Notes: generated by a model from the letters alone, not told the origin. A stretch of DNA of 64,000 nt from Gammaproteobacteria bacterium (GCA_021647705.1 JAKIUF010000002.1:137295-201294), one strand, 5' to 3'. Counted from the first letter of the stretch, positions 579 through 64,000 are shown. Translations and numbers: made by a program.

Positions 579-660
579 CATCAGGGGATTTTAAAGCTAG
601 CGTGGCTTTTGCGGTTTTTTTTGCAAAAGCCACGCTAGCTTTAAAAGTCCCTCTGGATGA
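579..660. repeat. 82-bp near-perfect hairpin (terminator-like or attC-like), preceded by ACATAAC and followed by a conserved 26-mer
   Basis: tcatcagggg / ttaaagctagcgtggcttttgc T8 gcaaaagccacgctagctttaa / ccctctggatga inverted repeats; CATAAC core matches the R'' cores of the right-hand integron attC sites. Confidence 0.5.
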
Positions 661-664
661 GTTT

Positions 665-890
665 GTGTACGCCCAGCATGGGCATGAACTAATGAGGTGA
701 AAGTCCTCTGTAGGAAGATCATCGCCGAACACCGTGTTGTTAGTAGGCGATAACTACTAGCGAATGGCAAGGGCCAGCCCGCGAGGGGCGGTCTGAAGGA
801 AGCCGGACGCACCAACAGTAGGCCCCATGAGGGGAATCTGCGAGCTGATGAACAAGAGCGTCATATGAGGCGTAGGCTGAAGGCGAAAAA
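665..890 (+). other. Possible truncated 5' fragment of a second group II intron (shares the first 26 nt GTGTACGCCCAGCATGGGCATGAACT with the complete intron at 2190)
   Basis: Same 26-mer placed 4 nt after hairpin 1 and 14 nt after hairpin 2; GC-rich, structured, non-coding; diverges after the 26-mer; ends at the MITE. Confidence 0.3.
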
Positions 891-894
891 AACC

Positions 895-943
895 GGGTCA
901 GAGAGCAATTGTTTCTAATATTAGTAAGTATCGCTCTCTGACC
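895..943. repeat. Palindromic MITE-like, bidirectional-terminator-like repeat, copy 1
   Basis: A-run + GGGTCAGAGAGCAATTGTTTCTAATATTAGTAAGTATCGCTCTCTGACC; the same element recurs at 6453 and 7324. Confidence 0.7.
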
Positions 944-993
944 TAACTGTGCAATATTTTTTAAAATCAATCGAGGTTGACCCCATTGATCTT

Positions 994-1410
994 TTAACGC
1001 AACAGATTTTTCAGTTCTTCTATTCTTGCAGTATTCAATCGAATGACACAACTGTTTACGGTGGTTACATAAGCAGGTGTTTCCTTCTCGATCTCGAAAG
1101 CCTCTATTTTGCAAGTTCTATCACGGAAGGTAATCCAAGCATCTTGAGCTTCGCTAACTACCGCAATTAATTCTTTGCCTAGTTTTAGGTCAGCCGCATA
1201 AACGCGCTTTGCGCGTTTCTCAAAATTCACAAATTCAGTCAATAGGAGGGCATTCGAATTCATCATCTCCTTATGTACGCAGTCGTCTAATTGAGGGCTC
1301 GTAGTGATATCTGTGCAATCGAGCTCGTCCGCCAGGAAAATGGTCTTCGTAGGCTGAGCCATGCAGGAGGTGGCAGAGAAAACCAGTAAAAAAATGTGCA
1401 ACAACCTCAT
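994..1410 (-). CDS. DUF1311/LprI-like lysozyme-inhibitor family protein (putative immunity protein), signal peptide
   Basis: N-terminal signal sequence; AQDAWITFRDRTC motif characteristic of DUF1311/LprI; overlaps the upstream lysozyme-like gene by 4 nt. Confidence 0.5.
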   Translation of the reverse strand: MRLLHIFLLVFSATSCMAQPTKTIFLADELDCTDITTSPQLDDCVHKEMMNSNALLLTEFVNFEKRAKRVYAADLKLGKELIAVVSEAQDAWITFRDRTCKIEAFEIEKETPAYVTTVNSCVIRLNTARIEELKNLLR

Positions 1411-2042
1411 TTGTTCGCTCCTGAATTCTTAACTGGCTTGCGACTCTTCAAATATTTGACACGATTGCGTCCAGGCTCATATTGCTTTATTGCCGCCGTC
1501 TCATTGATGTATTTAATTAGTTCGTCAAAGTCGTTATTCATGCCGGCCTTCATAGGGTTGGGTCCTTTGGTAAAGCCCTGATAGACAAAATCAACAAGTA
1601 CGTCTCGAATGGCTTGGTCTAGTTTGTTCCACTCAACTCGACTTTTCTCTGTAGCAGTCCATTTATCATAGTTCTGTTTCGCTCGACTTTCGTAATTAGG
1701 ATATATGTTGTCGAACAACTTGACCTGCTGTGCATGGGTTATCTTTCCTATCGTCTTCTTATGCTTCTCTGCGAACTCCTTTGCCTTGGCCCCCTTAAGT
1801 CCAGCTCCCTCGGATAGTGCCTTTGCGGTATTAGAGGGGATCCCAGCTTTAGTCATGTCTTGCTTAACTACAATTTTCGTGCGGTTACCCATGTCGTATC
1901 CTCGCCCGATTGTGACGCCGGAAAGAGCGTTTCCTGGCCAGTGGATGACTCGACTAAAATATTTCGATGTCTCTGCATCATTTCCTTCTGCATCGAATGT
2001 AATCTGCCCCTTTTTAACTTTAGTAGACATTTTTTCTCTCAA
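1407..2042 (-). CDS. Lysozyme-like (T4-lysozyme/GH24-like) protein, putative toxin
   Basis: FDAEGN...GVTIGRGYDMG resembles the T4 lysozyme catalytic DTEG..TIGIGH region; coupled to the LprI-like gene. Confidence 0.45.
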   Translation of the reverse strand: MREKMSTKVKKGQITFDAEGNDAETSKYFSRVIHWPGNALSGVTIGRGYDMGNRTKIVVKQDMTKAGIPSNTAKALSEGAGLKGAKAKEFAEKHKKTIGKITHAQQVKLFDNIYPNYESRAKQNYDKWTATEKSRVEWNKLDQAIRDVLVDFVYQGFTKGPNPMKAGMNNDFDELIKYINETAAIKQYEPGRNRVKYLKSRKPVKNSGANK

Positions 2043-2103
2043 ATCAATATTGGTTTGTAGATGTTATTGTTTAGTGCTCTGTGCTGCCCAACGTCGCCCA
2101 TAA

Positions 2104-2175
2104 CCGGAATTTTACCGCGTGGTTTGGCTGTGCTAAAAAAGCCTAGCACAGCCAAACCACGCGGTAAAATGTCCG
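2104..2175. repeat. 72-bp near-perfect hairpin (terminator or attC-like), preceded by CCATAAC, immediately upstream of the group II intron
   Basis: cggaatttt / accgcgtggtttggctgtgcta A6 gcctagcacagccaaaccacgcggt / aaaatgtccg; same architecture as hairpin 1. Confidence 0.5.
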
Positions 2176-2189
2176 AGTTGATGGGCCTT

Positions 2190-4198
2190 GTGTACGCCCA
2201 GCATGGGCATGAACTCAATATAGAAATAGAAAAGAAGACACCCAGTGCGCCGAGATAAATCGGTAGTTAATCAATTGGTGAAAGCCCAATACACAGTAAG
2301 AGCTAGCCACTCGCTGTGGCCCCGAGTCATGAGCTGTTATCGAAAGAGACACAGTTAAGCGTTGACAGGGGAACGTACAGGCTCAGTATTGAGCTCCGAA
2401 ATCACATTGAGAACGTTGACCTTGTTGGGTGAAGGGGAAGACCCTATTGATAACCTCGAAAATGGCAAGAGGTTGTCAAGCTCTCCGGAGTCATAGACCT
2501 GGTGCATGTACGAATGTTAACTACGCGGAACTCGGGAGCCCCTGTGTTTGATCAGCGCCAATCCAACCTCTAGTAGGAGGCAATGGTCGGGTTGAGGAAA
2601 TAAACCAAATAATCTCAACATCAACAAACACAGGGAGTCGGACAAAACCATAGTAGTGAAGAAGCAGGCGAACAAAGAGAGCAAGAGGAAAAAAAATGAC
2701 ATATTTCAATCCCCTTTGCCATCAGCGGAGTCAGTGGAGCGAAGGGTTTTGGCTAAGAGAAAGTTTGAGTAAACCCACCGAGACCTTGACGCAGAGCAAG
2801 GAAGAAACAGGCAGGGCACTGCACAGACTACATGAAGTCGCTAAACGAGATTCCCATCTCACATTCAACAACCTGCTACACCATCTGAGTATAGAAAAGC
2901 TCACACGAGCCTACTATGCGCTCAATCGAAAAGCAGCAAAAGGTGTTGATGAGCAAAGCTGGGACGACTATGGAGAAAACCTCCAGGAAAAGGTCAGCGC
3001 ATTACACACAAAACTGCATACCCAACGTTATCAACCACAACCCACAAAACGAGTCTGGATACCCAAAGCGAGCGGTCAACTAAGACCGATAGGCATCACT
3101 GCCATCGAGGATAAAGTGGTGCAGCAAGCCTTAGTCTGGGTGATGGAGTCGATATACGAAGCAGACTTTCTGGGTTTCAGCTACGGCTTCAGGCCAAATC
3201 GAAACCCACATCAGGCGCTGGACGTTGTCTACATTGCATTGACGGAAAAGAAAGTAAGCTGGGTGCTGGATGCCGACATACAAGGATTCTTCGATCACAT
3301 AGATCATGGCTGGATGATGAAATTCATTGAGCATCGGATCAGTGATAAAAGAATACTGGGACTACTGAAAAAGATACTAAAAGCAGGTGTGATAGAAGAA
3401 GGGAAATGGTCAAAGACGCGGATTGGAACCCCGCAAGGAGCTGTTATATCACCGCTACTAGCGAATATATACCTGCACTACGTCCTAGACCTATGGGCAC
3501 ATCAGTGGCGAAGAAAATACGCGCGAGGTGAAGTCTACATCGTACGATACGCCGACGATTTTGTACTGGGTTTCCAGTACAGAATAGACGGTGAACATTT
3601 TCACCAAGCCCTGATAGAAAGACTGAAATGCTTTGGACTGACATTGCACCCAGAGAAAACACGACTCATTGAATTTGGTCGGTTCGCTGAAAGCAATAGA
3701 AGAGAAAGAGGAGCGGGTAAGCCGGAAACATTTGATTTTCTAGGCTTCACGCACCTGTGCAGCAACAAGCGAAACAATAAAGGATTTAGCGTGCGCCGAC
3801 AGACCATCAGCAAAAGGCTGAGAGCCACGGTAAAAAGGATCAAAGAACAGCTGAAAAGAAACAACATGTTCAATGTTCACCGGCAGGGACGCTGGCTTCG
3901 CAAGGTGATGCAAGGTTTGATTAACTATTATGGCGTACCGGGAAACAGCACCGCGTTGGCAAGGCTGCGAACGGAAATGTGTTGTAACTGGCGAAAGTCA
4001 TTAAGGCGTCGAGGAAACAAAAGGCCGATAAACTGGCTGCAAATGACGAAGTTAATCAACCGCTGGATACCCAAAGTCAGCGTGGTTCACCCATACCCGA
4101 ATCAGCGGCGTTGTGTTTGACTCGAAGCAGGAGCCGGATGCGTTAGTAGCGCAAGTCCGGATCTGCGCCGGAGGCCTGACAAATGAGAACTGTAATGA
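2190..4198 (+). mobile_element. Group II intron (bacterial class C-like; reverse transcriptase without an En domain); boundaries approximate
   Basis: 5' GTGTACGCCCAGCATGGGCATG resembles the Ll.LtrB 5' end GTGCGCCCAGATAGGGTG (an alternative 5' end is GTGCG at 2245); ORF in domain IV; domain V-like GAGCCGGATGCG..CGCAAGTCCGGATC with AGC triad and 2-nt bulge at 4128-4165; sits right after a hairpin. Confidence 0.7.
2696..4120 (+). CDS. ltrA: Group II intron reverse transcriptase/maturase (intron-encoded protein)
   Basis: RT motifs (RPIGITAIEDKVVQQA, FDHIDH, YADDFVLG, TQGAVISPLLANIYL) and X/maturase domain; no C-terminal HNH/En domain. Confidence 0.9.
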   Translation: MTYFNPLCHQRSQWSEGFWLRESLSKPTETLTQSKEETGRALHRLHEVAKRDSHLTFNNLLHHLSIEKLTRAYYALNRKAAKGVDEQSWDDYGENLQEKVSALHTKLHTQRYQPQPTKRVWIPKASGQLRPIGITAIEDKVVQQALVWVMESIYEADFLGFSYGFRPNRNPHQALDVVYIALTEKKVSWVLDADIQGFFDHIDHGWMMKFIEHRISDKRILGLLKKILKAGVIEEGKWSKTRIGTPQGAVISPLLANIYLHYVLDLWAHQWRRKYARGEVYIVRYADDFVLGFQYRIDGEHFHQALIERLKCFGLTLHPEKTRLIEFGRFAESNRRERGAGKPETFDFLGFTHLCSNKRNNKGFSVRRQTISKRLRATVKRIKEQLKRNNMFNVHRQGRWLRKVMQGLINYYGVPGNSTALARLRTEMCCNWRKSLRRRGNKRPINWLQMTKLINRWIPKVSVVHPYPNQRRCV

Positions 4199-4399
4199 AA
4201 AAAAAAATTACAGAGCTTGTGAGTTGGGGCTTTACGGCAACTCAAATGAAAGCTTTGCATAAACCCCTTCCTCATTTACAACAACATGGTTAAAAATTGA
4301 TGCTTTTACCAGACACGGCAAAAAATCGAAAAATTTCCGGCAAACAAACTGGTTTTTTAGATCACAGGCAACAGGAGTCCCTCGCCATCCACCCAAGCG

Positions 4400-5551
4400 A
4401 CCTGAAAATAGAAAAATGAAGAAATGACTGGGTGCTATGTAGGTAAAGGTTGTCTTTGTTTATAAACACACTTTCCCACAGACTGACCTTTCAACCAGCA
4501 CTGACCTAATTGATCAGCAAACTGCCTGATTTTGTCCATTGCGCCCACCGCCCGAAAAAACCGCTGTTCGTAGTGGTTAATCATATCCAGCCAGCCCTGT
4601 TGCTCAATCCCCAGCCTGGACAAAATGGGAGGCAGGTTATCGGAAATAGCCCCGATTTTATCATCACGAACTGCCCGGCCGGTCCAGTCCACCAACTCCA
4701 GATAATCCGGGAATGAAAAAGCGATGCCTTCAGGCTGGTTGTTGCGTTCGTCACCGATGAAATCAACCAGTCTGACAGGTGTTTGAGCTATTTGTGATGG
4801 GGCTTGATCACGTTCAGGGGTTGAGGCTTGATGAGTTCGTATTCGCGCCTGAATCGATGTGTAATCGGATGCTTCCGGGCTGGGGTTGATGCCAGCCCGT
4901 ATAGGGTTAAGGTCCACATAGCTCATACAGGTGAGCAAGGCCTGTTCATCCAGCAAAGCCTGACTTTTGTAACGCCCTTCCCAGAATCGTCCCGTGCAGC
5001 GGTCTTCTGCATTGGCCTGTCGGGCGAGAGATTCATTTAAACAGCGCATGAACCAGCCCAGATCCATCAAACGGCTACGCCATTCCTGTACAAGCTCAGC
5101 AACCAGTTTCTTCTCTGCCTTACCCTGTCGCTCTCCTTTCTTCATTTGATCAATTAACAGCGGTGCCTTGAATAACGTGGTCCAGTGTTCAATCACTTCA
5201 TCATCAGACCATGCCACAGCTTGAGGCTGATTGATGTGCAGAACCAAATGGTAATGATTGCTCATGACAGCGTAGGCACAGACATCGATAGAAAAAACGT
5301 CGGCCAGTTCAGCGAGCTTATCCACTACCCATTGTTTGCGGTGTTCATAACTTTGTCCAGAGAACTCGTCTTTTCCGCAGAGAAAGGCGCGGCGAACACA
5401 GCGCGAGATGCAATGGTAATAAGGGGTTGAATCCAGGCAGACCTGGTTTTTGCGAGGTTTTGGCATCCGTGCCTCCTTCATGTGAATTGTACGCCTTGCA
5501 ATCTAACGAGGATCAGCCAGAGTGTCAATTAATTGATGGGTGTCTCTATTT
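4400..5551 (-). mobile_element. IS200/IS605-family-like insertion sequence (Y1 HUH transposase), copy 1; left boundary uncertain
   Basis: Right end defined by identity with the inverted second copy at 63644 onward (GATGGGTGTC terminus); carries one transposase ORF. Confidence 0.55.
4435..5481 (-). CDS. tnpA: HUH (Y1) transposase, IS200/IS605 or REP-associated tyrosine transposase-like
   Basis: HYHLVLH (HUH) motif, GRYKS catalytic tyrosine region, YHCISRCVRRAF N-terminal motif; 348 aa; second copy starts at 63729. Confidence 0.7.
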   Translation of the reverse strand: MKEARMPKPRKNQVCLDSTPYYHCISRCVRRAFLCGKDEFSGQSYEHRKQWVVDKLAELADVFSIDVCAYAVMSNHYHLVLHINQPQAVAWSDDEVIEHWTTLFKAPLLIDQMKKGERQGKAEKKLVAELVQEWRSRLMDLGWFMRCLNESLARQANAEDRCTGRFWEGRYKSQALLDEQALLTCMSYVDLNPIRAGINPSPEASDYTSIQARIRTHQASTPERDQAPSQIAQTPVRLVDFIGDERNNQPEGIAFSFPDYLELVDWTGRAVRDDKIGAISDNLPPILSRLGIEQQGWLDMINHYEQRFFRAVGAMDKIRQFADQLGQCWLKGQSVGKCVYKQRQPLPT

Positions 5552-5944
5552 TCTCTATTTTCAAGTTGTCCAATTGCCCATCTTCTGATCCAGAGCATAA
5601 AGTACCATAAAAACAATATGTTGTAAGTGTTATATTTATTCGAAAAAGTTAAATCTCTTCGGGTTTTATTCCCCGCCGCTTGCGGCGTAAGGTTGGAAAA
5701 AACCAAGGGTAGCTATATACGAAGCTTTATGAAAGCTATCAGCTGGCACCGTTTGTAAGAATACCCCGCTTTCGCGTAGCGAAAGTCGAGCTTAAGCGAG
5801 AGGGCTTGCCCCGGGGATTTTTATTCTCAACCTGTGGTTGATTTTTCGAAACTAGGGAATGCCCCATTTTGTCAAATATTATTGTGTTATGGTTTTGCTT
5901 TCATAGCTGGTTATTTAGCCAGTTTAATTTTACAGGAGGTGGCC

Positions 5945-6442
5945 ATGGATTCGGCAGTTTCTTCTTCTCCCTTTTTACGTTCTGTTGTTGAGGCTATTTG
6001 CGTGCGACATTACAGCATCCGTACGGAAAAGGCTTATATTAACTGGATCAAGCGATTTATTCTTTTTCATGACAAACGTCACCCCGCTAAAATGGGAGGC
6101 GTGGAGGTTGGGGATTTTTTGACCGATTTGGCGATGAATCGACAGGTGTCGCCCAGTACACAGAATCAGGGGTTAAATGCGCTGAATTTTTTGTACAAGG
6201 TGGTTTTGGAGCAACCATTGGGGGATGTGAAAAATTTGGTGCGGGCAAAGAACAAGCGTAAATTACCGGTGGTATTAACGGTTGATGAGGTGAGGGCGGC
6301 GGTGTTGCGTGAATTGAATGGGGTGCAGTGGCTGGCAGCTTGTTTAATGTATGGTTCTGGCTTGCGATTGATGGAGTGTTTACGTTTGCGGGTGATGAAT
6401 CTTGATTTTTTGCACCGCGCAGTTTATGTGCGCATATGGTAA
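5945..6442 (+). pseudogene. intI: Integron integrase intI, N-terminal about 165 aa fragment truncated by MITE copy 2
   Basis: [51 protein letters not shown] matches the N-terminal half of IntI and the right-hand intI; ends abruptly at the repeat at 6453. Confidence 0.65.
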
Positions 6443-6452
6443 AGAAAAAACC

Positions 6453-6499
6453 GGGTCAGAGTAATACTTACTAATATTAGAAACAATTGCTCTCTGACC
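6453..6499. repeat. Palindromic MITE-like repeat, copy 2 (inverted relative to copy 1), abutting the truncated intI
   Basis: GGGTCAGAGTAATACTTACTAATATTAGAAACAATTGCTCTCTGACC flanked by A-run and T-run. Confidence 0.7.
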
Positions 6500-6562
6500 T
6501 GGGTTTTTACGCCACAAAATGAAATCGATCGTGCCTGCTCCCCTTGGTCTTTATAGACGCTG

Positions 6563-6820
6563 CTATCTATTTTTGACCAATTTATTATGATACAGATCTT
6601 CAATGGGGAAAATCATTGTGTAATCATCCCAGTTTAAATTACCATCAATAATTTCAAACTTCAAAAACTCATCAATTGACTTATATTTTTCATAATCAGG
6701 ATGTCCACTTGAAAATATGAAAATAGAAAAATCTACATATGCATGATGACCATCAGAAAATTCAATATCTAATATATGACTAGTTTTATGTTTAGCTGAT
6801 TTTACCAATAATTCTGACAT
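6563..6820 (-). CDS. DUF2442-family small protein (partner of DUF4160)
   Basis: 85 aa; overlaps the upstream DUF4160 gene; typical two-gene DUF4160/DUF2442 module. Confidence 0.5.
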   Translation of the reverse strand: MSELLVKSAKHKTSHILDIEFSDGHHAYVDFSIFIFSSGHPDYEKYKSIDEFLKFEIIDGNLNWDDYTMIFPIEDLYHNKLVKNR

Positions 6821-7118
6821 TACGCACCTTTTGTGTTACATACGTCGGAGAAACATGCATTTTTTTAACAAAATAGTCTACCCATTTTTCTACAATATCT
6901 TCTGCATAGCAATTTACAAACCCTTCAAATTCTTTACGTTTTTTTGGCTCTAAGCCAGGACCTTTATCTTTTAGTACTATTTTATTAATTTTTCCATTTA
7001 AAAAATGAATCTCTGCTTTGGTTTCTTTGCCATTGTGTTTTCCATGAATATGTATAGGTTCGTGTTCATTGCTGTAAAAGAAAAAAACAATCCCAAAGTA
7101 TTCGTATATTTTCGGCAT
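6792..7118 (-). CDS. DUF4160-family small protein
   Basis: MPKIYEYFGIVFFFYSNEHEPIHIHGKH N-terminus is the DUF4160 signature. Confidence 0.55.
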   Translation of the reverse strand: MPKIYEYFGIVFFFYSNEHEPIHIHGKHNGKETKAEIHFLNGKINKIVLKDKGPGLEPKKRKEFEGFVNCYAEDIVEKWVDYFVKKMHVSPTYVTQKVRNVRIIGKIS

Positions 7119-7231
7119 AGATAACTCCTTTTTTGATTAAACTAAATTGCATTAGATAATGGAATCAGACTCGATTGATTTTCAATCTTGCGCCAATATT
7201 TCTTTTGAATTCTCGCCATTTCACTTACTTA

Positions 7232-7309
7232 ACTCCTCTACATTTTTGCCGCAGCAAAAAGCTCCGAGGGCTTAAGGTCTAGAACAAACGCAATACGGCG
7301 AATATTCAG
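7232..7309 (-). pseudogene. Remnant of the 3' end of an XRE-family regulator gene (paralogous to 8312..8542)
   Basis: About 78 bp, about 85% identical to 8312-8390; encodes ..[22 protein letters not shown]; no N-terminal part; bounded by MITE copy 3. Confidence 0.45.
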
Positions 7310-7323
7310 AAGATGAAAAACTC

Positions 7324-7377
7324 GGGTTAGAGAGCAATACTTATTAATATTAGAAACAATTGCTCTCTCTCTGACCC
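7324..7377. repeat. Palindromic MITE-like repeat, copy 3
   Basis: A-run + GGGTTAGAGAGCAATACTTATTAATATTAGAAACAATTGCTCTCTCTCTGACCC + T-run. Confidence 0.7.
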
Positions 7378-7480
7378 GGGTTTTTCTTTTAGAGACATAT
7401 TGAATTTCTAGTATTATTGCTAACGGCCAAGCTCAGCCTCGCCGTTTTTTGGCGTCGACTGGAGCGCATGGTTCGCTGCG

Positions 7481-7879
7481 TTATTCAAAGTAGCTCCGTA
7501 AACGCTGTGCCAATTTACTGGACTGTTTGTCGTATTGCTGTTGATGCGTGGTGATTGCTATTGGGCCGATGCGCGTCACCCCACGCGCTTTCAGGTGCTG
7601 CGCCAAGATATCTATAACTTTTTTCCCGTAGCCTCGACCCCGAAATGCTGAATCGATCCACCAGCCAGGTTGAACGTCATTTAGGCCGGATGCCTCAACT
7701 AGCGCAACCAACCGACCTGATGTTTCCTCGAATAAAGCGAAAAGTCCAGATTCATAAGCAGCCCAGACTTGCGGCGGCCCCAAATCATTTCGGTGCTCTG
7801 ACAAAGATAGCCGCTCTTGAATCAACTTTGACTGGGCTGGTGAAAGTACGGATTTCTCAATCATGACTAAGCATCTCAT
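7481..7879 (-). CDS. GNAT-family N-acetyltransferase
   Basis: IDSAFRGRGYGKKVIDILAQHL acetyl-CoA binding motif (R/Q-x-x-G-x-G/A). Confidence 0.75.
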   Translation of the reverse strand: MRCLVMIEKSVLSPAQSKLIQERLSLSEHRNDLGPPQVWAAYESGLFALFEETSGRLVALVEASGLNDVQPGWWIDSAFRGRGYGKKVIDILAQHLKARGVTRIGPIAITTHQQQYDKQSSKLAQRLRSYFE

Positions 7880-8311
7880 TCAAGCAGCTAACGTCTAAAT
7901 GTCTGTTGGACTATACCGCCTCTACCGGGTCAGCAGACTATGGGGATTGTATTGAAAGCGATAGGGCTTGTCGAAGGGCGATAATACCGTTTTGGTTGTG
8001 GTCATGTTTGACAAGGCCATTTTCTTAACCATTTTCAGGTTTGTCACTCATTCAGTCTGTTTGTTGTTTAACACGTTATCATCAGGTCACCGTCCATACA
8101 ACGGGGTTGCTGGGGTTTCAGAACACACCTGAAGTCGGCCCTTTTTACATTTTGGGCAGAGACAGGTGGCGGATGTTATTCCGTATCTGTTTTTGTTTCC
8201 GGTTCACGTGGCGGTGCTTGCAGGCACTGACGGATGATCGCCAGCTTTTGCTTTCGGCTGAGGTTGGATAAAAACTCGTAATGCCAATAGCTATCGTATT
8301 AATTAATTTCT

Positions 8312-8542
8312 CTACATTTTTGCCGCAGCAAAAAGTTCCGAGAGCTTAAGCTCCAAAACAGATGCAATACGGCGGATATTCAGAAGCGAAACGTTTCTTT
8401 CGCCTCGCTCGATAGCCCCCATGTAAGTACGGTGCATTCCACACAAGCTGGCAAAATTCTCTTGCGACAGCTCAAGAGCCTCCCGTTTTTTTCGGATCGT
8501 TGTCCCAAGCGACTTTTGGGCCTGTTTTTGAGTAATTTCCAT
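8312..8542 (-). CDS. XRE-family helix-turn-helix transcriptional regulator
   Basis: [37 protein letters not shown] motif; start assumed at MEITQKQ. Confidence 0.7.
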
Positions 8543-49848: not shown

Positions 49849-49924
49849 TGGCAAGTGCGCTACCCGGTAGGCGGTCTCACTGTTAATGAGGTGTATGCCG
49901 GTTCGAGTCCGGCCTTGCCAGCCA
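49849..49924 (+). tRNA. tRNA-Asn(GUU)
   Basis: Hand-folded cloverleaf: acceptor TGGCAAG/CTTGCCA, anticodon arm TCTCA-CTGTTAA-TGAGG, T arm GCCGG-TTCGAGT-CCGGC, ends GCCA. Confidence 0.65.
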
Positions 49925-49953
49925 ATTAACTGTCTGAAAAGGAGGTATAGAAA

Positions 49954-50142
49954 ATGAAGGTGATGAAGCTAGAGAGACGATTTGAATCATTAATCGCGAC
50001 GATGAATGTACCTCAAACCCGAAAGAAAGGAACTGCAATTAATGCATTGTGGTTTTTAAGGGATGGGGCAATTGCTAACAGAACACATAAAAATGTTCAT
50101 GAAGCCAGTGAGATTGCGGTGAAATTAGCTAACGCTCATTAA
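49954..50142 (+). CDS. Hypothetical 62-aa protein inside the tRNA array (strong SD)
   Basis: AAAGGAGG 8 nt upstream of ATG. Confidence 0.4.
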   Translation: MKVMKLERRFESLIATMNVPQTRKKGTAINALWFLRDGAIANRTHKNVHEASEIAVKLANAH

Positions 50143-50169
50143 CGAAGAATGAATTTATTAAGCAGTATA

Positions 50170-50242
50170 TGCACCTGTAGCTGAGTCGGAATAGCGCGAC
50201 ACTGAAAATGTCGAAACGGTCGTTCAATTTGTCCCAGGTGCA
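50170..50242 (+). tRNA. tRNA-Phe(GAA)-like, probably degenerate (imperfect T-stem, no encoded CCA)
   Basis: Perfect acceptor GCACCTG/CAGGTGC, D arm, anticodon arm CGACA-CTGAAAA-TGTCG; T-arm pairs poorly. Confidence 0.4.
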
Positions 50243-50250
50243 TCAGATAT

Positions 50251-50327
50251 GGCCCGTTAGCATAGTGGTTGGATGCAAACGATTGTCAGGCGTGAGATCG
50301 CGGATTTAAATTCCGCACGGGCCGCCA
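50251..50327 (+). tRNA. tRNA-Asp(GUC)-like, degenerate (weak anticodon stem, T-loop TTTAAAT)
   Basis: Perfect acceptor GGCCCGT/ACGGGCC plus GCCA, D arm GCAT/ATGC, loop TTGTCAG gives anticodon GTC. Confidence 0.35.
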
Positions 50328-50586
50328 GTAGCGCCGCAGGTAATGACAGTAAACAACTTGTGAGCACGGCTGAAATATAGCCAAGGTGTGAACCAGAGGA
50401 CTTGGCCATTTGTTAATCCTCAGTTGGTTGTTTAACCAAAAAGTAGGTATGGCGCAGTTATTGATGAAATGGGGCGACCATTACTTGCGGTTTTTTTTAA
50501 AGTCACATTCGCTAAGCTGGCAGGGTTCTCAATCAATAATCGAGGGATCCCTGGTTGAGGCTTAGGATGTGGCACCAATGATTAAT

Positions 50587-50663
50587 GGTGAAAGTAGCTT
50601 AATGGGTAAAGCTTCTGATTGTGAATCAGATAGATGCCGGATCATCCCCGGTCTTTCACCCCA
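50587..50663 (+). tRNA. tRNA-His(GUG) with G-1, C73 and encoded CCA
   Basis: G-1 + GTGAAAG/CTTTCAC acceptor, anticodon arm TCTGA-TTGTGAA-TCAGA, C73, CCA; T-loop ATCATCC is non-canonical. Confidence 0.6.
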
Positions 50664-50696
50664 TTATTATTTAAATAATAAAAGGGAAAAGAAATT

Positions 50697-50772
50697 GGGT
50701 TGCTAGCTCAACTGGCAGAGCAATCGCCTTTTAAGCGATAGGTTCGGGGATCGTTCTCCCGGCAGCCCACCA
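50697..50772 (+). tRNA. tRNA-Lys(UUU)
   Basis: Acceptor GGGTTGC/GCAGCCC, D arm GCTC-AACTGGCA-GAGC, anticodon arm ATCGC-CTTTTAA-GCGAT, ACCA end; T-loop ATCGTTC unusual. Confidence 0.6.
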
Positions 50773-50927
50773 AACATCACATGTTACATCATTGTAATGT
50801 GATAACAGCGTTGAAACAGCACTGCATTGTTCAGCGGTTCAGGTTCTGTATGCCTGGCCTGCGCACCAACACTTAGCGAAAGCAATCGTACGGTGTGTAC
50901 AGATCAATTGTGGTGATTTCGACATCC

Positions 50928-51001
50928 ACCAGGATAGCTCAGTTGGGTAGAGCAACTGATTTTTAATCAGTTTGTCGCAGGTTCGATTCCTGCTCCAGGC
51001 A
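50928..51001 (+). tRNA. tRNA-Lys(UUU)-like with two acceptor-stem mismatches (possible pseudogene or att remnant)
   Basis: D arm GCTC-AGTTGGGTA-GAGC, anticodon arm ACTGA-TTTTTAA-TCAGT, canonical T arm GCAGG-TTCGATT-CCTGC; acceptor ACCAGGA/TCCAGGC mismatched; no CCA. Confidence 0.35.
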
Positions 51002-58915: not shown

Positions 58916-59849
58916 CTATCCGGACAAAACCGCACCCAATGGACTCACCACCGCATTTCCGCCCCGGTTCAGTACATGGGTATAGATTTGAGTGGTACGC
59001 ACATCTTTATGCCCCAACTGTTCCTGCACCGTTCGGATATCCATGCCCCGCTCCAGCAAATGCGTGGCAAAAGAATGACGCAACGTATGACAACTGGCGG
59101 GCTTGTGAATCCCCGCCTTGCGAATCGCCTTCTCATCAAAATGATGCCGCCGTTCCACGCCCGAACGAGGATCAATACTGCCACGCCCATTCCGTTGGCG
59201 CATTGGGATATTTTCGTGCCAGAGCATGGGGAAGGTAAACACTGCCAAAACCATCTGCCAAATCTTTATCGTGCGTTTGTCGTCGATTTTCCAGGTGTCG
59301 TTGCAAAGGCACAATCAACTCATCTGACAGCGTCACTACCCGGTCTTTCCCTCCTTTAGCGTTATGCACATAAATCGCACAGCGCAAAAAATCAAGATTC
59401 ATCACCCGCAAGCGTAAACATTCCATCAATCGCAAACCGGAACCGTACATCAAACAGGCCGCAAGCCAATAAAGACCATCCAGCCCTTGTAGAACCGCTT
59501 GTACCTCTTCACGCGTCAACACCACCGGAATCTTTTGCCGTGTTTTGGCGCGCGCCACCCCTTTCAAGCCCTCAATGGGCTGGTCCAACACCACGCGATA
59601 AAGAAACATCAAGGCATTAAAAGCCTGATTCTGTGTACTGGGGGCAACATTTCGATCTACCGCCAAATGCGTCAAAAATGCTGTTACTTCCCGTGCCCCC
59701 ATTTCACGAGGATGCTGTTTGTTATGGAAATAGATAAACCGCTTCACCCAGCCGCTATCAGCTTTTTCGGTTTTCCGGCTGTAATGACGCACACGAATTG
59801 CATCCGAAATCGAACACAGGAAAGGCGAAGAATAATTTGTCGAATCCAT
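58916..59849 (-). pseudogene. intI: Integron integrase intI with apparent frameshift near 59175-59200
   Basis: N-terminal 225-aa ORF (..[17 protein letters not shown]) and overlapping C-terminal ORF (..[50 protein letters not shown]) in different frames; IntI-specific extra domain present. Confidence 0.8.
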
Positions 59850-60305
59850 GACAGTGCTTCCTTAAATGATGCTGATGTTTTGTACAGTAATTTTTATAAT
59901 CCACAAATGCAAGTGGAATATTTTCCCACTTTGGGGTATTTCTACATTCAATATCCTGGCTACACCCCAATATTCCGCAGGGTAAAATGTCCTGAAAATT
60001 CCGACTATCTTATTGAGTTTAATAATTTTTTCAAAAAAATGAAAAAACAGAGCGAACAAAAAACAAACAAATTCACACTAAAAAATACCCCGTGTGATAT
60101 CCCCAAAATGTCTTATTTGCCCGTTTCAATATCCAGCAGGCTCAGGTCATTTTATACTCACCATGAAAATTACCCCGGTAATAAGTCATTGATTATTTAG
60201 TGGGTTTATTAGAGTATTGAGCGGAGCCGGGAATCATCGGCAAATAAATTATTGGATTTTGGGGCGGGGTTATCCCCCCACTCTGGGGTCCATTAAGCGT
60301 TAGAT
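59850..60305 (+). promoter_or_regulatory. attI/Pc region of the right-hand integron, ending in the GTTAGAT recombination core (60299-60305)
   Basis: Upstream of and divergent from intI; GTTAGAT fits GTTRRRY and is the reverse complement of the R'' core (ATCTAAC) of the first attC. Confidence 0.6.
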
Positions 60306-60320
60306 TTAAAAGAGAAATAT

Positions 60321-60826
60321 ATGATAGGAAGCTGGGAGATGTCATCGCTATCAGAACCCAAGCGATACTTTGAGTACTCAAAGGCATATATCCAAGCGAG
60401 CCTCGATATATGTAACAGCATGATAAGTGACAAAAATCGAGAAACATGGCCTAATGCTAATGTTGCATTAATGCTGGCAGCACATTCCGTCGAGCTATTT
60501 CTTAAAGGAGCAATACTCTTAAAGTCAAATAAAGCATGGGGGCACACACTTGAAAATTTAAATTCAACATATCATGATATTTATACTGAAAAAAACTTCA
60601 GTTTAACTGCCCTTTTAGAACCGAATATATAGAAATATCAGAAGAAGAGCAAAGGACTTTAAGAAAGAAAGAGCCTCAACAAAGCATACTTTTCCGCTAT
60701 CCTGTAAAAAAACCGGGAGTTGAATGGAATGGAGTATTTGGGTTTGAACCAAATGATTTTATCGATATTCTCAATGATTTAAATGCTAATTATAATAAGT
60801 TGATTTATAAACATGAAAATAATTAA
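60321..60826 (+). CDS. Hypothetical cassette protein; apparent frameshift near 60615-60632 splits it into two frames
   Basis: ORF 60321..60632 continues in another frame to 60826; 3' end overlaps the protease gene start. Confidence 0.4.
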
Positions 60827-61757
60827 AAATATATTACTAGTCATATTGCCCTTAATACAATCACATGTATATGCACTAGACTCAGGAGAAATATATAAGA
60901 AAAGCATTGAATCTGTGGTTACAGTAGTATCCTTAGATAAAGACAACAAAATATTAATGACAGGAACGGGCTTCTTTGCAAAACATAAAAACCTAATCGC
61001 AACAAATTACCATGTCATTAAAAACACGCACCATCTAAAAATAATAACCTCAGATGATAAGGAGCATAATATTTTTGATATATGCGTTGAAAACGCATCA
61101 AATGACATCGCAATATTACGATCAATTCCTGAAAGACAGCCTTTATCTTTAAATAAAAACACACCAAGTATTGGTGATAAAATTATTTCCATTGGTAGCC
61201 CAATGGGATTATCAGGCAGCTTATCAACTGGCGTTATTGGTGCCATTAGAAAGAATGAAGGGCATAAATATTATCAAATAACATCACCGATATCGCCAGG
61301 CAGTAGTGGTGGCCCTGTTATTGATGAGAACGGACTCGTTCTTGGTATGACAACATTTTATATTAAAGGCGCTCAAAATTTAAATTTTGCAATACCATCC
61401 CCACGAATTTCAACTTATCTAAATACAAGCATGGAATGTTTAAAGAAAAGCAATACGCAGCCTGACACTGCATTGATAAATAAATATTCAGAATCTCTCT
61501 ACGAAAATTACTTAAAAAATAAAGACAGCTACCCTTCAGAAAGGCAAAATATAAAACCTGACGCATACCAATGTATCGCGCAACTCATCAGTGATTTTGG
61601 TACCAAAGAAGAAATTATCGCTCTAAACAATATGTTTATTAATAAGAGTAAATCATTAGATGTCCAGCTATCTCCATATAGAAAAAACATACTCAAATCA
61701 TTAATTAATAACTCAAGTAATAATGAGTGTCTTGCAACAAAAAAATCTAACAATTAG
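60813..61757 (+). CDS. Secreted trypsin-like (S1/DegP-core) serine protease with about 120-aa C-terminal extension of unknown function
   Basis: Signal peptide; catalytic His (TNYHVI), Asp (NDIAIL), Ser (SPGSSGGPV); no PDZ domain. Confidence 0.7.
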   Translation: MKIIKNILLVILPLIQSHVYALDSGEIYKKSIESVVTVVSLDKDNKILMTGTGFFAKHKNLIATNYHVIKNTHHLKIITSDDKEHNIFDICVENASNDIAILRSIPERQPLSLNKNTPSIGDKIISIGSPMGLSGSLSTGVIGAIRKNEGHKYYQITSPISPGSSGGPVIDENGLVLGMTTFYIKGAQNLNFAIPSPRISTYLNTSMECLKKSNTQPDTALINKYSESLYENYLKNKDSYPSERQNIKPDAYQCIAQLISDFGTKEEIIALNNMFINKSKSLDVQLSPYRKNILKSLINNSSNNECLATKKSNN

Positions 61758-61801
61758 CTCAAGCGGACGTAAAAAACACGCCGCTTAGCAAGGCGTTAGG
61801 G
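61745..61801 (+). other. Integron attC site 1 (57 bp): R'' ATCTAAC ... R' GTTAGGG
   Basis: Imperfect inverted repeat gctcAAGCGGacgt / cacgCCGCTTagc between the cores; R'' is the exact reverse complement of the attI core. Confidence 0.65.
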
Positions 61802-61808
61802 GTTAAAA

Positions 61809-62321
61809 ATGTCATTCAATCTTCCAGGCGTTAAACAAGATAGTGATATAGAATCGCTTTTCAAATCTGTCGGTTTTATTGTCGTGCAGTGGGGACACTG
61901 TGAACAGTCTCTGGAGTTGCTAGTTAATACATTGCACCGACAGTTTAGCGGCAGCAAATTACCAAAAAGGAAAAAGATGCCAAGGCAGCTATCTTCAAAA
62001 CTAGATTTTGTTAAAGAATGTGCATTAGGCATACCCGAATTATCTCCGTTTCAAGATGAACTTGAGAGATTGGTTCATGATTTCGAGGACATTAAGCAAA
62101 CTCGCCATGATTTAATACATGGAGCAATAACAGATGATCCAGTTATGGACGGCGTGTTTACCTTCATAAGGCTTCAGGCTGATTCAGATATTCATGAAGT
62201 AAAGCATTTTCAGTACGACTTGCATGATTTTCCAAGAATTTCAAAAATTCTCTTGCGTCTGGGAGCTGATTCACCAAAAGTGGCTCGTCGTATTTTTGAA
62301 GCAAGTCAAAAGATGCCATGA
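61809..62321 (+). CDS. Hypothetical cassette protein (170 aa)
   Basis: Between attC1 and attC2, co-oriented with the cassette array; no recognisable motif. Confidence 0.5.
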   Translation: MSFNLPGVKQDSDIESLFKSVGFIVVQWGHCEQSLELLVNTLHRQFSGSKLPKRKKMPRQLSSKLDFVKECALGIPELSPFQDELERLVHDFEDIKQTRHDLIHGAITDDPVMDGVFTFIRLQADSDIHEVKHFQYDLHDFPRISKILLRLGADSPKVARRIFEASQKMP

Positions 62322-62427
62322 TTTCAATTGAAATAGCATCTGCTGAAAGTGGAGTGTCGCCGTCCCAATGCCAAAGAAGGCTGCCAATCCAGTCTGTTAA
62401 TAGTTCTCTGTTGGTCATAAAATTCAC

Positions 62428-62502
62428 CCCTAACAAACGCCTAGAGACCGACATATTTTGTCACTGCGTTCCAAAATATTCGGCTCAGGCTTAACGTTAT
62501 GC
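62428..62502 (+). other. Integron attC site 2 (75 bp): R'' CCCTAAC ... R' GTTATGC
   Basis: R'' is the exact reverse complement of attC1 R'; internal imperfect palindrome AACGCCTAGAGACCG / CGGCTCAGGCTTAACGTT. Confidence 0.65.
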
Positions 62503-62515
62503 CAAAAGGAAATGA

Positions 62516-62724
62516 ATATGATAAATAAATATCGTGTGCATCTTGAAACAATAGACCCAGATAATGAAGAGCAGGATATTCATTATTCAACATTGGTTGA
62601 AGCCACAAACGAAAACGAGGCCATTGAAATAGCAAAAGATAGACAAGGAGAAGAAAGTCCAGAATTGCCTCGTAGTAAAACATGGGCTTGGCATGCTTAC
62701 AAAACAAATGAAGCCATTGATTAG
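62516..62724 (+). CDS. Hypothetical small acidic cassette protein (69 aa)
   Basis: SD aaaggaaATGaatATG; the longer listed ORF from 62458 begins inside attC2, so the downstream ATG is preferred. Confidence 0.45.
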
Positions 62725-62741
62725 TTATATAAATAAAAGCA

Positions 62742-62775
62742 GGCATCGAATGATTGATGCCTGCTTTTAAAAAGT
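62742..62775. terminator. Bidirectional hairpin terminator between the convergent small ORF and the symE-like gene
   Basis: AAAAGCAGGCATC gaatgatt GATGCCTGCTTTT perfect 13-bp stem with A and T runs. Confidence 0.65.
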
Positions 62776-62778
62776 AAG

Positions 62779-63039
62779 TTATTGTGGAGTGATGATTAAT
62801 CGATTTTGAGTAACTTGTACACAAATAGGAAGCCCAATAACAAAGCCAGATTCTTCAAGCCATGTTCCTTTGAGTAAAATAAAAGGAGTTTTAGGGTTGC
62901 CTTTATGAGGCGCGGATTTTAAGCAATAGTCACGATGCCCTTCTCGAACTATAATATGACGTTTATTCATGATTATTTCCTTGTGCAAATGGTTAAAAAC
63001 CACCACCGCCAAGGTACGAATCTTAGGGTGGTGGGCCAT
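62779..63039 (-). CDS. symE: SymE-family type I toxin-like protein (SOS-induced toxin family)
   Basis: ..RDYCLKSAPHKGNPKTPFILLKGTWLEESGFVIGLPICVQVTQNRLIITPQ resembles the E. coli SymE core [42 protein letters not shown]. Confidence 0.55.
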   Translation of the reverse strand: MAHHPKIRTLAVVVFNHLHKEIIMNKRHIIVREGHRDYCLKSAPHKGNPKTPFILLKGTWLEESGFVIGLPICVQVTQNRLIITPQ

Positions 63040-63260
63040 ATGAGGTTCGTACTACCGCGCACAAGGAACGGCCACCCGAAGGTGCCCCATACAGCCCACC
63101 GTAAAAGGGGGCAAGCCACAAAAAAAGACGCTGGCTACAATGTAGGCGTCTTTCAGGTGGCACCTTGTGTCTTGCGGGGTACGAATCCCGGCCTGATTTA
63201 CATCAAGCAAATCAACTGTAATTTAATGAGTTGGCTCTGTCAACATCGTGCCAAAATATG

Positions 63261-63351
63261 GCATAACACGGCGCTCCACCTGACTGCCAAAAGCTGCGCT
63301 GCTCGTACCTCGCTCTGCAACTTTTGGCAGCCAGTGAGCTAGGAGTTATGC
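63261..63351 (+). other. Integron attC site 3 (91 bp): R'' GCATAAC ... R' GTTATGC
   Basis: R'' is the exact reverse complement of attC2 R'; internal inverted repeat CTGACTGCCAAAAGCTGCG / CTGCAACTTTTGGCAGCCAG. Confidence 0.65.
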
Positions 63352-63375
63352 AACAAAACGAAAGGAGGAAACACA

Positions 63376-63645
63376 ATGGTTAATTTTGTAAAATTATGGA
63401 ATAGCCACCCAACCGTAGAATCATTTATAGATGATTTCCCATGTAAGAAAAATGGCAAGAAGGCATTTGACAATCAGTGTGCAATTCGCATTGGAGTGGC
63501 ATTCGAAAAAACTGGTGTCAACCTTAAGTCATTCAAAGGTGCCAAATGTTGGCATAGTCATAAGCCAGCACATATTTTGCGCGCAGAAGAAATAGAAAAT
63601 TGGCTAAAAGGTCCATTTTCGCCTTTTAAAAACATAACAGAATAA
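63376..63645 (+). CDS. Tae4-like amidase effector N-terminal fragment, truncated by IS insertion
   Basis: NQCAIRIGVAFEKTG resembles the Tae4 catalytic-Cys region NACPIRMSYVLNATG; 89 aa against about 160 for full Tae4; the stop codon is supplied by the IS terminus. Confidence 0.4.
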   Translation: MVNFVKLWNSHPTVESFIDDFPCKKNGKKAFDNQCAIRIGVAFEKTGVNLKSFKGAKCWHSHKPAHILRAEEIENWLKGPFSPFKNITE

Positions 63646-64000
63646 AATAGGACACCCATCAATTAATTGACACTCTGGTCGATCCTCGTTAGATTGCAAG
63701 GCGTACAATTCACATGAAGGAGGCACGGATGCCAAAACCCCGCAAAAATCAGGTCTGCCTGGATTCAACCCCTTATTACCATTGCATCTCGCGCTGTGTA
63801 CGTCGTGCCTTTCTCTGTGGCAAAGACGAGTTCTCCGGCCAAAACTACGAACACCGGAAACAATGGGTTGTCGATAAACTCGCTGAATTAACCCGTGTTT
63901 TTTCTATCGACGTTTGTGCCTACGCTGTCATGAGTAATCATTACCATTTAGTCCTGCACATCAATCAGCCTCAAGCTTTGGCATGGTCTGATGATGAAGT
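63644..64000 (+). mobile_element. Second copy of the IS200/IS605-like element, inverted relative to copy 1, continuing beyond the window
   Basis: 63652-63728 is the reverse complement of 5481-5549; transposase ORF from 63729 almost identical to 4435..5481. Confidence 0.7.
63729..64000 (+). CDS. tnpA: HUH (Y1) transposase, partial (runs off the window)
   Basis: MPKPRKNQVCLDSTPYYHCISRCVRRAFLCGKDEFSGQNYEHRKQWVVDKLAEL.. near-identical to the copy-1 transposase. Confidence 0.7.
   Translation, partial: MPKPRKNQVCLDSTPYYHCISRCVRRAFLCGKDEFSGQNYEHRKQWVVDKLAELTRVFSIDVCAYAVMSNHYHLVLHINQPQALAWSDDE

Follow-up and report, generated by a model that had tools for sequence, protein, structure and literature searches.

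The 64,000-nt stretch of a gammaproteobacterial genome analysed here (GCA_021647705.1, JAKIUF010000002.1:137295-201294; hereafter the window) carries three imperfect palindromes of 58-70 nt with A/T-rich tips, at 886-943 (c1), 6445-6508 (c2) and 7316-7385 (c3). We conclude that these copies are very probably non-autonomous mobile elements that resemble REPINs, the hairpin-forming doublets of repetitive extragenic palindromic (REP) sequences, and that each joins the two ends of a unit encoding a REP-associated tyrosine transposase (RAYT). The same arm lies in inverted orientation around RAYT genes on other contigs, and we therefore read the window copies as doublets of RAYT-unit ends, comparable to REPINs or to miniature inverted-repeat transposable elements (MITEs). 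An earlier note, made from the sequence of the window alone, had placed the copies at 895-943, 6453-6499 and 7324-7377 and had described them as bidirectional intrinsic terminators and as a small MITE or terminator cassette. The three copies exist, and these intervals are their cores. The picture of a small, palindromic, MITE-like mobile family also stands, although the doublet is a fusion of RAYT-unit ends without target-site duplications rather than a terminator cassette or a MITE of a general kind. For annotation, the three "terminators" are better labelled repeat elements.

All three window copies combine one arm of type A (CAATTGTTTCT) with one of type C (CAATACTTACT). In c1, on the minus strand, arm A is on the left and arm C on the right, and the right side, which faces LprI, lacks the outer CGG and T-run. 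The other two lie in the opposite orientation, on the plus strand: c2 has arm C and then arm A, with 3 nt missing from the left arm, and in c3, whose outer stem is the longest of the three, a variant arm, C', precedes arm A, the right arm, which has an additional CT. Pairwise identity is 84-91%, a degree of likeness that suggests the copies are old. Matches to the arm far exceed expectation in 64 kb, with four for a 17-mer at up to 3 mismatches (0.08 expected) and two for a 32-mer (0.00 expected); neither search found a fourth copy of the doublet in the window. The RNA folding check proposed in the earlier note gave strong folds for every copy (-21.6 to -33.3 kcal/mol, z -3.3 to -7.3), and the folding energies of the single-stranded DNA lie between -10.9 and -19.2 kcal/mol, at z from -4.8 to -8.6. 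We also observed that an independent short-read contig of the locus (L117, Logan contig SRR32233992_53169; loci are referred to by L numbers) stops exactly at the centre of c2, as assemblies typically do at a multi-copy repeat or a hairpin.

A repeat family that travels with one RAYT subclade

The core of the element, GGGTCAGAGAGCAATTGTTTCTAAT|ATTAGAAACAATTGCTCTCTGACCC, is present in more than 110 contigs from many gammaproteobacterial metagenome-assembled genomes (MAGs), so the possibility raised in the earlier note that the element might be confined to a single locus does not hold for the family. A scan with a degenerate 23-nt arm pattern matched at least 115 genome contigs, about 111 of which, all from Gammaproteobacteria, carry the full palindrome; the remaining 4 are chance matches that lack it. 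The family consensus is AAAAACCGGGTCAGAGAGCAATTGTTTCTAAT|ATTAGAAACAATTGCTCTCTGACCCGGTTTTT. Hosts come from sediments and similar habitats and include Sedimenticolaceae, Thiohalomonadaceae, Thiogranum, Acidiferrobacterales, Methyloprofundus, Methylomarinum, Thiotrichaceae and Chromatiaceae. No match to the family was found among the plasmids of PLSDB by blastn or among the viral contigs of IMG/VR by pattern scan; Rfam placed no family at any copy, only sub-threshold microRNA-like noise, and in the literature the arm sequence matched only unrelated eukaryotic and viral primers.

Doublets account for 79 of 128 copies, and 77 of these 79 lie outside long open reading frames (ORFs); at single-arm loci the arm borders a gene. 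Gene 3' ends are found beside the copies in mild excess (73/123). The conserved palindrome takes in positions 11-25, counted from the centre of the doublet. Positions 6-10 pair less often than expected (at position 7, 23% versus 51%), and since the arms differ in type, a constant internal bubble results.

The arms lead directly to a transposase gene. At L086 an arm at 6488-6511 precedes a RAYT gene at 6568-7251 (228 aa) that is followed by inverted arms from 7284, and at L092 arms at 20-43 and 814-837 enclose a RAYT gene read from 758 to 48. Elsewhere arms adjoin RAYT starts, ends or remnants (L012, L013, L028, L051, L058, L082 and L097), and in L097 N- and C-terminal RAYT scraps remain between two arms, an internal-deletion intermediate of about 300 bp. 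The encoded protein is a Y1/HUH transposase by Pfam (Y1_Tnp, PF01797, E 1e-15); its best NCBIfam model is REP_Tyr_transpos (NF047646, 72.3 and 74.7 bits), against 17.8 and 22.7 bits for transpos_IS200, whose cut-off is 55. TnpA structures in the PDB match it only at E 0.1-0.3.

A reciprocal test reached the same association from the side of the gene. Among 80 metagenome loci fetched by RAYT homology and screened for arms, arms occur only in L123, L124, L125, L126, L127 and L130, which are six of the eight closest loci (59-78% identical). The first three have arms on both sides, about 70-100 nt upstream and 10-20 nt downstream of the RAYT gene, and the last three have an arm on one side. Every arm match in this test flanks a RAYT gene, shuffled sequence gave no matches, and the arm sequence goes with one RAYT subclade only.

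Members of the wider RAYT clade (51-61% identical; L129, L135, L147, L163 and L168, compared over the gene and 100 nt on either side) have inverted repeats of their own, 22-38 nt long, which share a G-rich tip, clearest as GGGGTCAGA, and then diverge. We also found that the arm tip with about 10 nt of flank is often tandemly duplicated beside the RAYT gene, two to five times in L051 (6660-6720), L086 (7284-7440), L124 (2390-2420 and 3240-3270), L127 (900-925) and L013 (470-520), and also in L082 and L114. The junction of these duplications is commonly GGTC|AGAG or its complement, and they may be a trace of RAYT cleavage and rejoining at that point.

On this reading each copy consists of the two terminal inverted repeats of a RAYT unit of about 0.9 kb, each about 30 nt long, fused head to head without any intervening sequence. 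If TnpA(REP) and IS200/IS605 are a guide, such a doublet would fold as a hairpin in single-stranded DNA, and a RAYT encoded elsewhere in the genome would cut and rejoin it in trans. Cleavage would fall near GGTC|AGAG, to which both the tandem tip duplications and the tip GGGGTC|AGA common to more distant RAYT units point.

Several observations weigh against this interpretation. No cognate RAYT is encoded in the 64 kb, and the RAYT of the family scores just under the NCBIfam equivalog cut-off of 80 bits for REP_Tyr_transpos. No clean pair of filled and empty sites was found among all fetched loci, only one-sided shared flanks that mark synteny break points, so that mobility is deduced from distribution, and the link between copies and local deletions described below is a correlation. 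Copies per MAG number 1-7 by exact pattern among the matches listed, with three in this 64 kb, well short of the hundreds that REPINs typically reach, REPINs being defined by tens to hundreds of copies per genome. A single arm is neither palindromic nor able to fold on its own (0 to -1.9 kcal/mol, which shuffled sequence matches), whereas a REP unit is itself a palindrome or stem-loop of 20-50 nt. Finally, REPs are defined by a conserved GTAG tetranucleotide 5' of the palindrome (PMC8266576); the consensus here contains no GTAG, and has ATTAG/TTAG at the centre of the doublet and on the RAYT-proximal side of the arm, with TTAG at the equivalent place.

A RAYT-related ORF of 348 aa at 4435-5481 was considered as the cognate transposase and rejected, as it is only 26% identical to the RAYT and is bounded by a different, unrelated inverted repeat of 17 nt (4400-4416 and 5550-5566). 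This Y1-like ORF has no Pfam match and a partial match to REP_Tyr_transpos (40 bits); a second copy at 63644-64000 (91% nucleotide identity) has no doublet nearby, and L033 encodes a homologue that is 62% identical.

These discrepancies could instead mean that the family belongs to a distinct class of RAYT, one with true terminal inverted repeats in place of a GTAG and REP hairpin and with a near-invariant core of about 45 nt across several orders, whose doublets act as hot spots that reshuffle cassette arrays. We regard this as unlikely. If it were true, such a core across orders would imply either horizontal spread or very strong constraint, unlike the vertically inherited REPINs, and the doublets would either supply portable homology or serve RAYT or IntI as substitute folded sites.

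A conventional MITE, derived from a DDE-transposase insertion sequence and moved by cut-and-paste with target-site duplication, is a very unlikely source of the doublets. Terminal inverted repeats of about 30 nt, the absence of coding capacity and arms that form no hairpin alone are what such an element would have. However, the check for target-site duplications proposed in the earlier note found none: across 77 copies no duplication of 6-9 bp occurs at symmetric boundaries 20-41 nt from the centre, matches of 3-5 bp are scattered, and no boundary with direct repeats of 3-9 bp is common to most copies. In addition, the only gene found between arms is the Y1/HUH RAYT, and no DDE gene was found.

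Break points at the copies in the integron

All three copies in the window adjoin truncated features, and none is a simple insertion. The clearest case is c2, which follows the N-terminal fragment of an integron integrase gene (5945-6444, plus strand; 165 codons, with the SAM-like domain and the start of the catalytic domain by Pfam). In a relative with an intact intI (L120, 90% nucleotide identity) homology is lost at 6444, the base that precedes the A-run of c2; from there the relative continues with GGTGGAAAAGATCGAGTGGTGACG, whereas in the window c2 takes the place of the C-terminal half of intI. The earlier note's observation that c2 lies exactly at the end of the intI fragment is thereby borne out. 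A sister genome, L121 (GCA_015492965.1), is 94% identical over the XRE gene, response regulator and RND pump and has the same junction between intI and doublet, within a few bases of small indels, and the truncation of intI is therefore older than the divergence of these two genomes. The homology of L121 to the window breaks off at 6507, one base short of the end of c2, and past this point L121 has an attC-like element, MqsR/MqsA and SecB instead of DUF2442/DUF4160, c3 and GNAT. By these alignments c2 is the exact border between DNA common to L121 and a variable block of cassettes.

On its left, c3 adjoins the 3' end of an XRE-type gene (7183-7312, minus strand), composed of the gene end at 7225-7312, which is 88% identical to 8299-8386 and stops 3 nt before c3, and a downstream stretch at 7183-7224. 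The whole of 7183-7312 matches the single intact XRE locus of L121 at 88.6%, and the 55 nt downstream of XRE in L121 match the window at 7183-7224, beside c3, and not downstream of the window's complete XRE gene. The earlier note had c3 interrupting this 3' fragment; the fragment does end 3 nt before c3, but the missing 5' part of that XRE copy is absent beyond c3. The remaining copy, c1, adjoins the truncated start of an intron.

Elsewhere, too, synteny breaks on one side of a copy (L040 versus L055, and L065 versus L111). Simple insertion was rejected both for c2 in intI and for c3 in XRE, because the missing gene halves are not found on the far side of the copy. An inversion was likewise rejected: c1 and c2 lie 5.5 kb from each other in inverted orientation, but flipping the DNA between them rejoins no interrupted gene. 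Relatives of the LprI cassette (72-77% amino-acid identity) were considered as the state before c1 arrived and are too diverged.

The earlier note had proposed that the element remodelled the integron platform. This holds insofar as every copy sits beside a truncated feature and synteny with a sister genome changes at c2; as to cause, the evidence is correlative, and simple insertion leaves the missing DNA unexplained. We infer that the element caused the rearrangements, most likely through recombination between copies acting as portable homology or through one-ended RAYT cleavage and joining. Unequal crossing-over between copies would explain the co-oriented cassettes downstream of the dead intI. 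Locally, then, c2 stands at the end of a dead left-hand integrase gene and marks a change of cassettes between close relatives, a change that it may have brought about.

In two sister genomes c2 falls precisely where shared DNA gives way to variable cassettes, which could also be taken to mean that the copies are attC-like folded sites, or secondary sites for the integron integrase, and that this accounts for the cassette change. A hairpin with a conserved internal bubble 6-10 positions from the centre is in keeping with such sites, as are array copies within about 30 nt of attC-like palindromes, although such closeness is expected because cassette arrays have little other non-coding space. 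However, the consensus has no RYYYAAC/GTTRRRY (R''/R') boxes and none of the other 115 repeat loci encodes IntI, which also means that the family is not specific to integrons; we judge this explanation highly improbable.

Hardly credible is the proposal that the copies are bidirectional intrinsic terminators evolved by their hosts, alike by chance and not mobile: each does have a G+C-rich stem base with an A-run before and a T-run after it, and strong RNA folds and the mild excess of gene 3' ends point the same way, but this origin is already contradicted by a near-identical core of 40-50 nt in more than 110 contigs and many families that also flanks RAYT genes, by a consensus terminator scan that lists none of the three copies, by a T-run on one strand only in c1 and by the small hairpin with T-run at 972-985 that lies nearer to LprI. 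As to the bidirectional terminators of the earlier note, the shape fits, with long, interrupted stems and with U-tracts on both strands in c2 and c3 and on the minus strand only in c1. Its claim that c1 ends the lysozyme/LprI pair is right about the position, 50 nt downstream of the LprI stop codon, but that same hairpin at 972-985 is closer. Whatever the origin of the doublets, their hairpin and U-tract may act as a transcription stop or stabilise mRNA.

The left-hand part of the window around c1 is an integron cassette array on the minus strand, with attC-like palindromes at 583-652 and 2109-2170. The lysozyme-like (Pesticin domain by Pfam) and LprI genes form a pair at 994-2042 on the minus strand, with their 3' side facing c1. 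A group IIC intron extends from 2188 to about 4245 (RF02005 at 2281-2500, 164 bits; reverse-transcriptase ORF 2696-4120); it is of the attC-targeting type and lies directly behind the palindrome at 2109-2170. A probable 5' remnant of a second group IIC intron (663-885, plus strand) stands behind the palindrome at 583-652 and ends at c1; its first 31 nt (663-693) are 97% identical to 2188-2219, and beyond this it has only a weak match to RF02001, at 775-841. Between c2 and c3 is the DUF4160/DUF2442 gene pair (6563-7118, minus strand), and no attC is recognisable between the 3' end of this pair and c2. To the right of c3 follow a GNAT cassette with an attC-like site, the complete XRE gene, the response regulator and the RND pump.

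Over 9.7 kb the window matches contig JAKITR010000044.1 of GCA_021647965.1 at 99.86% identity, and all 14 differences fall within the GNAT acetyltransferase gene, at 7685-7874, in what looks like a recombination tract or a swap of cassette alleles. Relative to L121, the window has a 153-nt insertion at 7950-8102 inside a conserved element of about 110 nt, such that L121 3701-3809 matches window 7893-7949 plus 8103-8161. A second intI at 58916-59849, split into two ORFs by a frameshift and 73% identical in nucleotides to the left-hand fragment, has a cassette array to its right (60300-64000), and the two integron platforms face apart across about 52 kb of core genes. Six tRNA genes are clustered at 49849-51001, and a C4 antisense RNA of P1/P7 type (59 bits) lies at 63024-63106 in the right-hand cassette region. 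In a bin assigned to Methylomarinum (L070), a doublet of the same A+C arm subtype as the window copies occurs in an apparent cassette array at 640-990, 30 nt from a hairpin that has the ending found at window 648-660, CCCTCTGGATGAG. Close by is a stretch with 88-92% identity to the array of the source contig (L122 2016-2072).

Comparison with known systems

The closest relatives of the family are the REPIN-RAYT systems, or REPtrons, in which REP sequences and bacterial interspersed mosaic elements (BIMEs) are associated with TnpA(REP) (Bertels & Rainey 2011, PMC3116915; Corneloup et al. 2021, PMC8266576). As in those systems, the repeat borders a Y1/HUH RAYT in inverted orientation, forms inverted doublets that fold into a long hairpin, lies outside genes, leaves no target duplication and has its own sequence in each RAYT subclade. 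The family thus shares the architecture of REPIN-RAYT systems and departs from them in two points of sequence and structure, the GTAG and the self-folding REP unit. It differs, too, in its few copies per genome among the matches listed and in its degenerate and duplicated RAYT genes, which score 72-75 bits against the cut-off of 80. Knowledge of REPIN-RAYT systems comes mainly from enterobacteria and pseudomonads (RAYT groups 2 and 3), and such systems are portrayed as specific to a lineage, passed on vertically and reliant on a REP made of GTAG plus hairpin. Here, in contrast to the usually lineage-specific REPINs, a single core extends across several gammaproteobacterial orders.

IS200/IS605 insertion sequences likewise encode a Y1 HUH transposase and leave no target duplication, and their ORF-less derivatives, the palindrome-associated transposable elements (PATEs), consist of the two ends only. 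The present family resembles them in its Y1 transposase (PF01797), in the absence of target duplication and in its miniature two-end derivatives. The ends of IS200/IS605 are two different subterminal hairpins and not an inverted repeat, whereas the ends described here are inverted repeats of 22-38 nt whose arms do not fold alone, and the IS200 model scores 18-23 bits against its cut-off of 55. MITEs are also known next to or inside integrons, where they are of DDE type and have target duplications. Like these, its copies are short elements with inverted repeats at the edge of an integron on which rearrangement can act, but the family is associated with a RAYT and makes no target duplication.

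Among these systems the family stands out as one that keeps the REPIN-RAYT architecture without either of its recognition features, the GTAG and the hairpin REP. With one core spread over many sulfur- and methane-oxidising lineages of sediments, it offers a test both of how RAYTs recognise their substrates and of whether such systems move horizontally at all.

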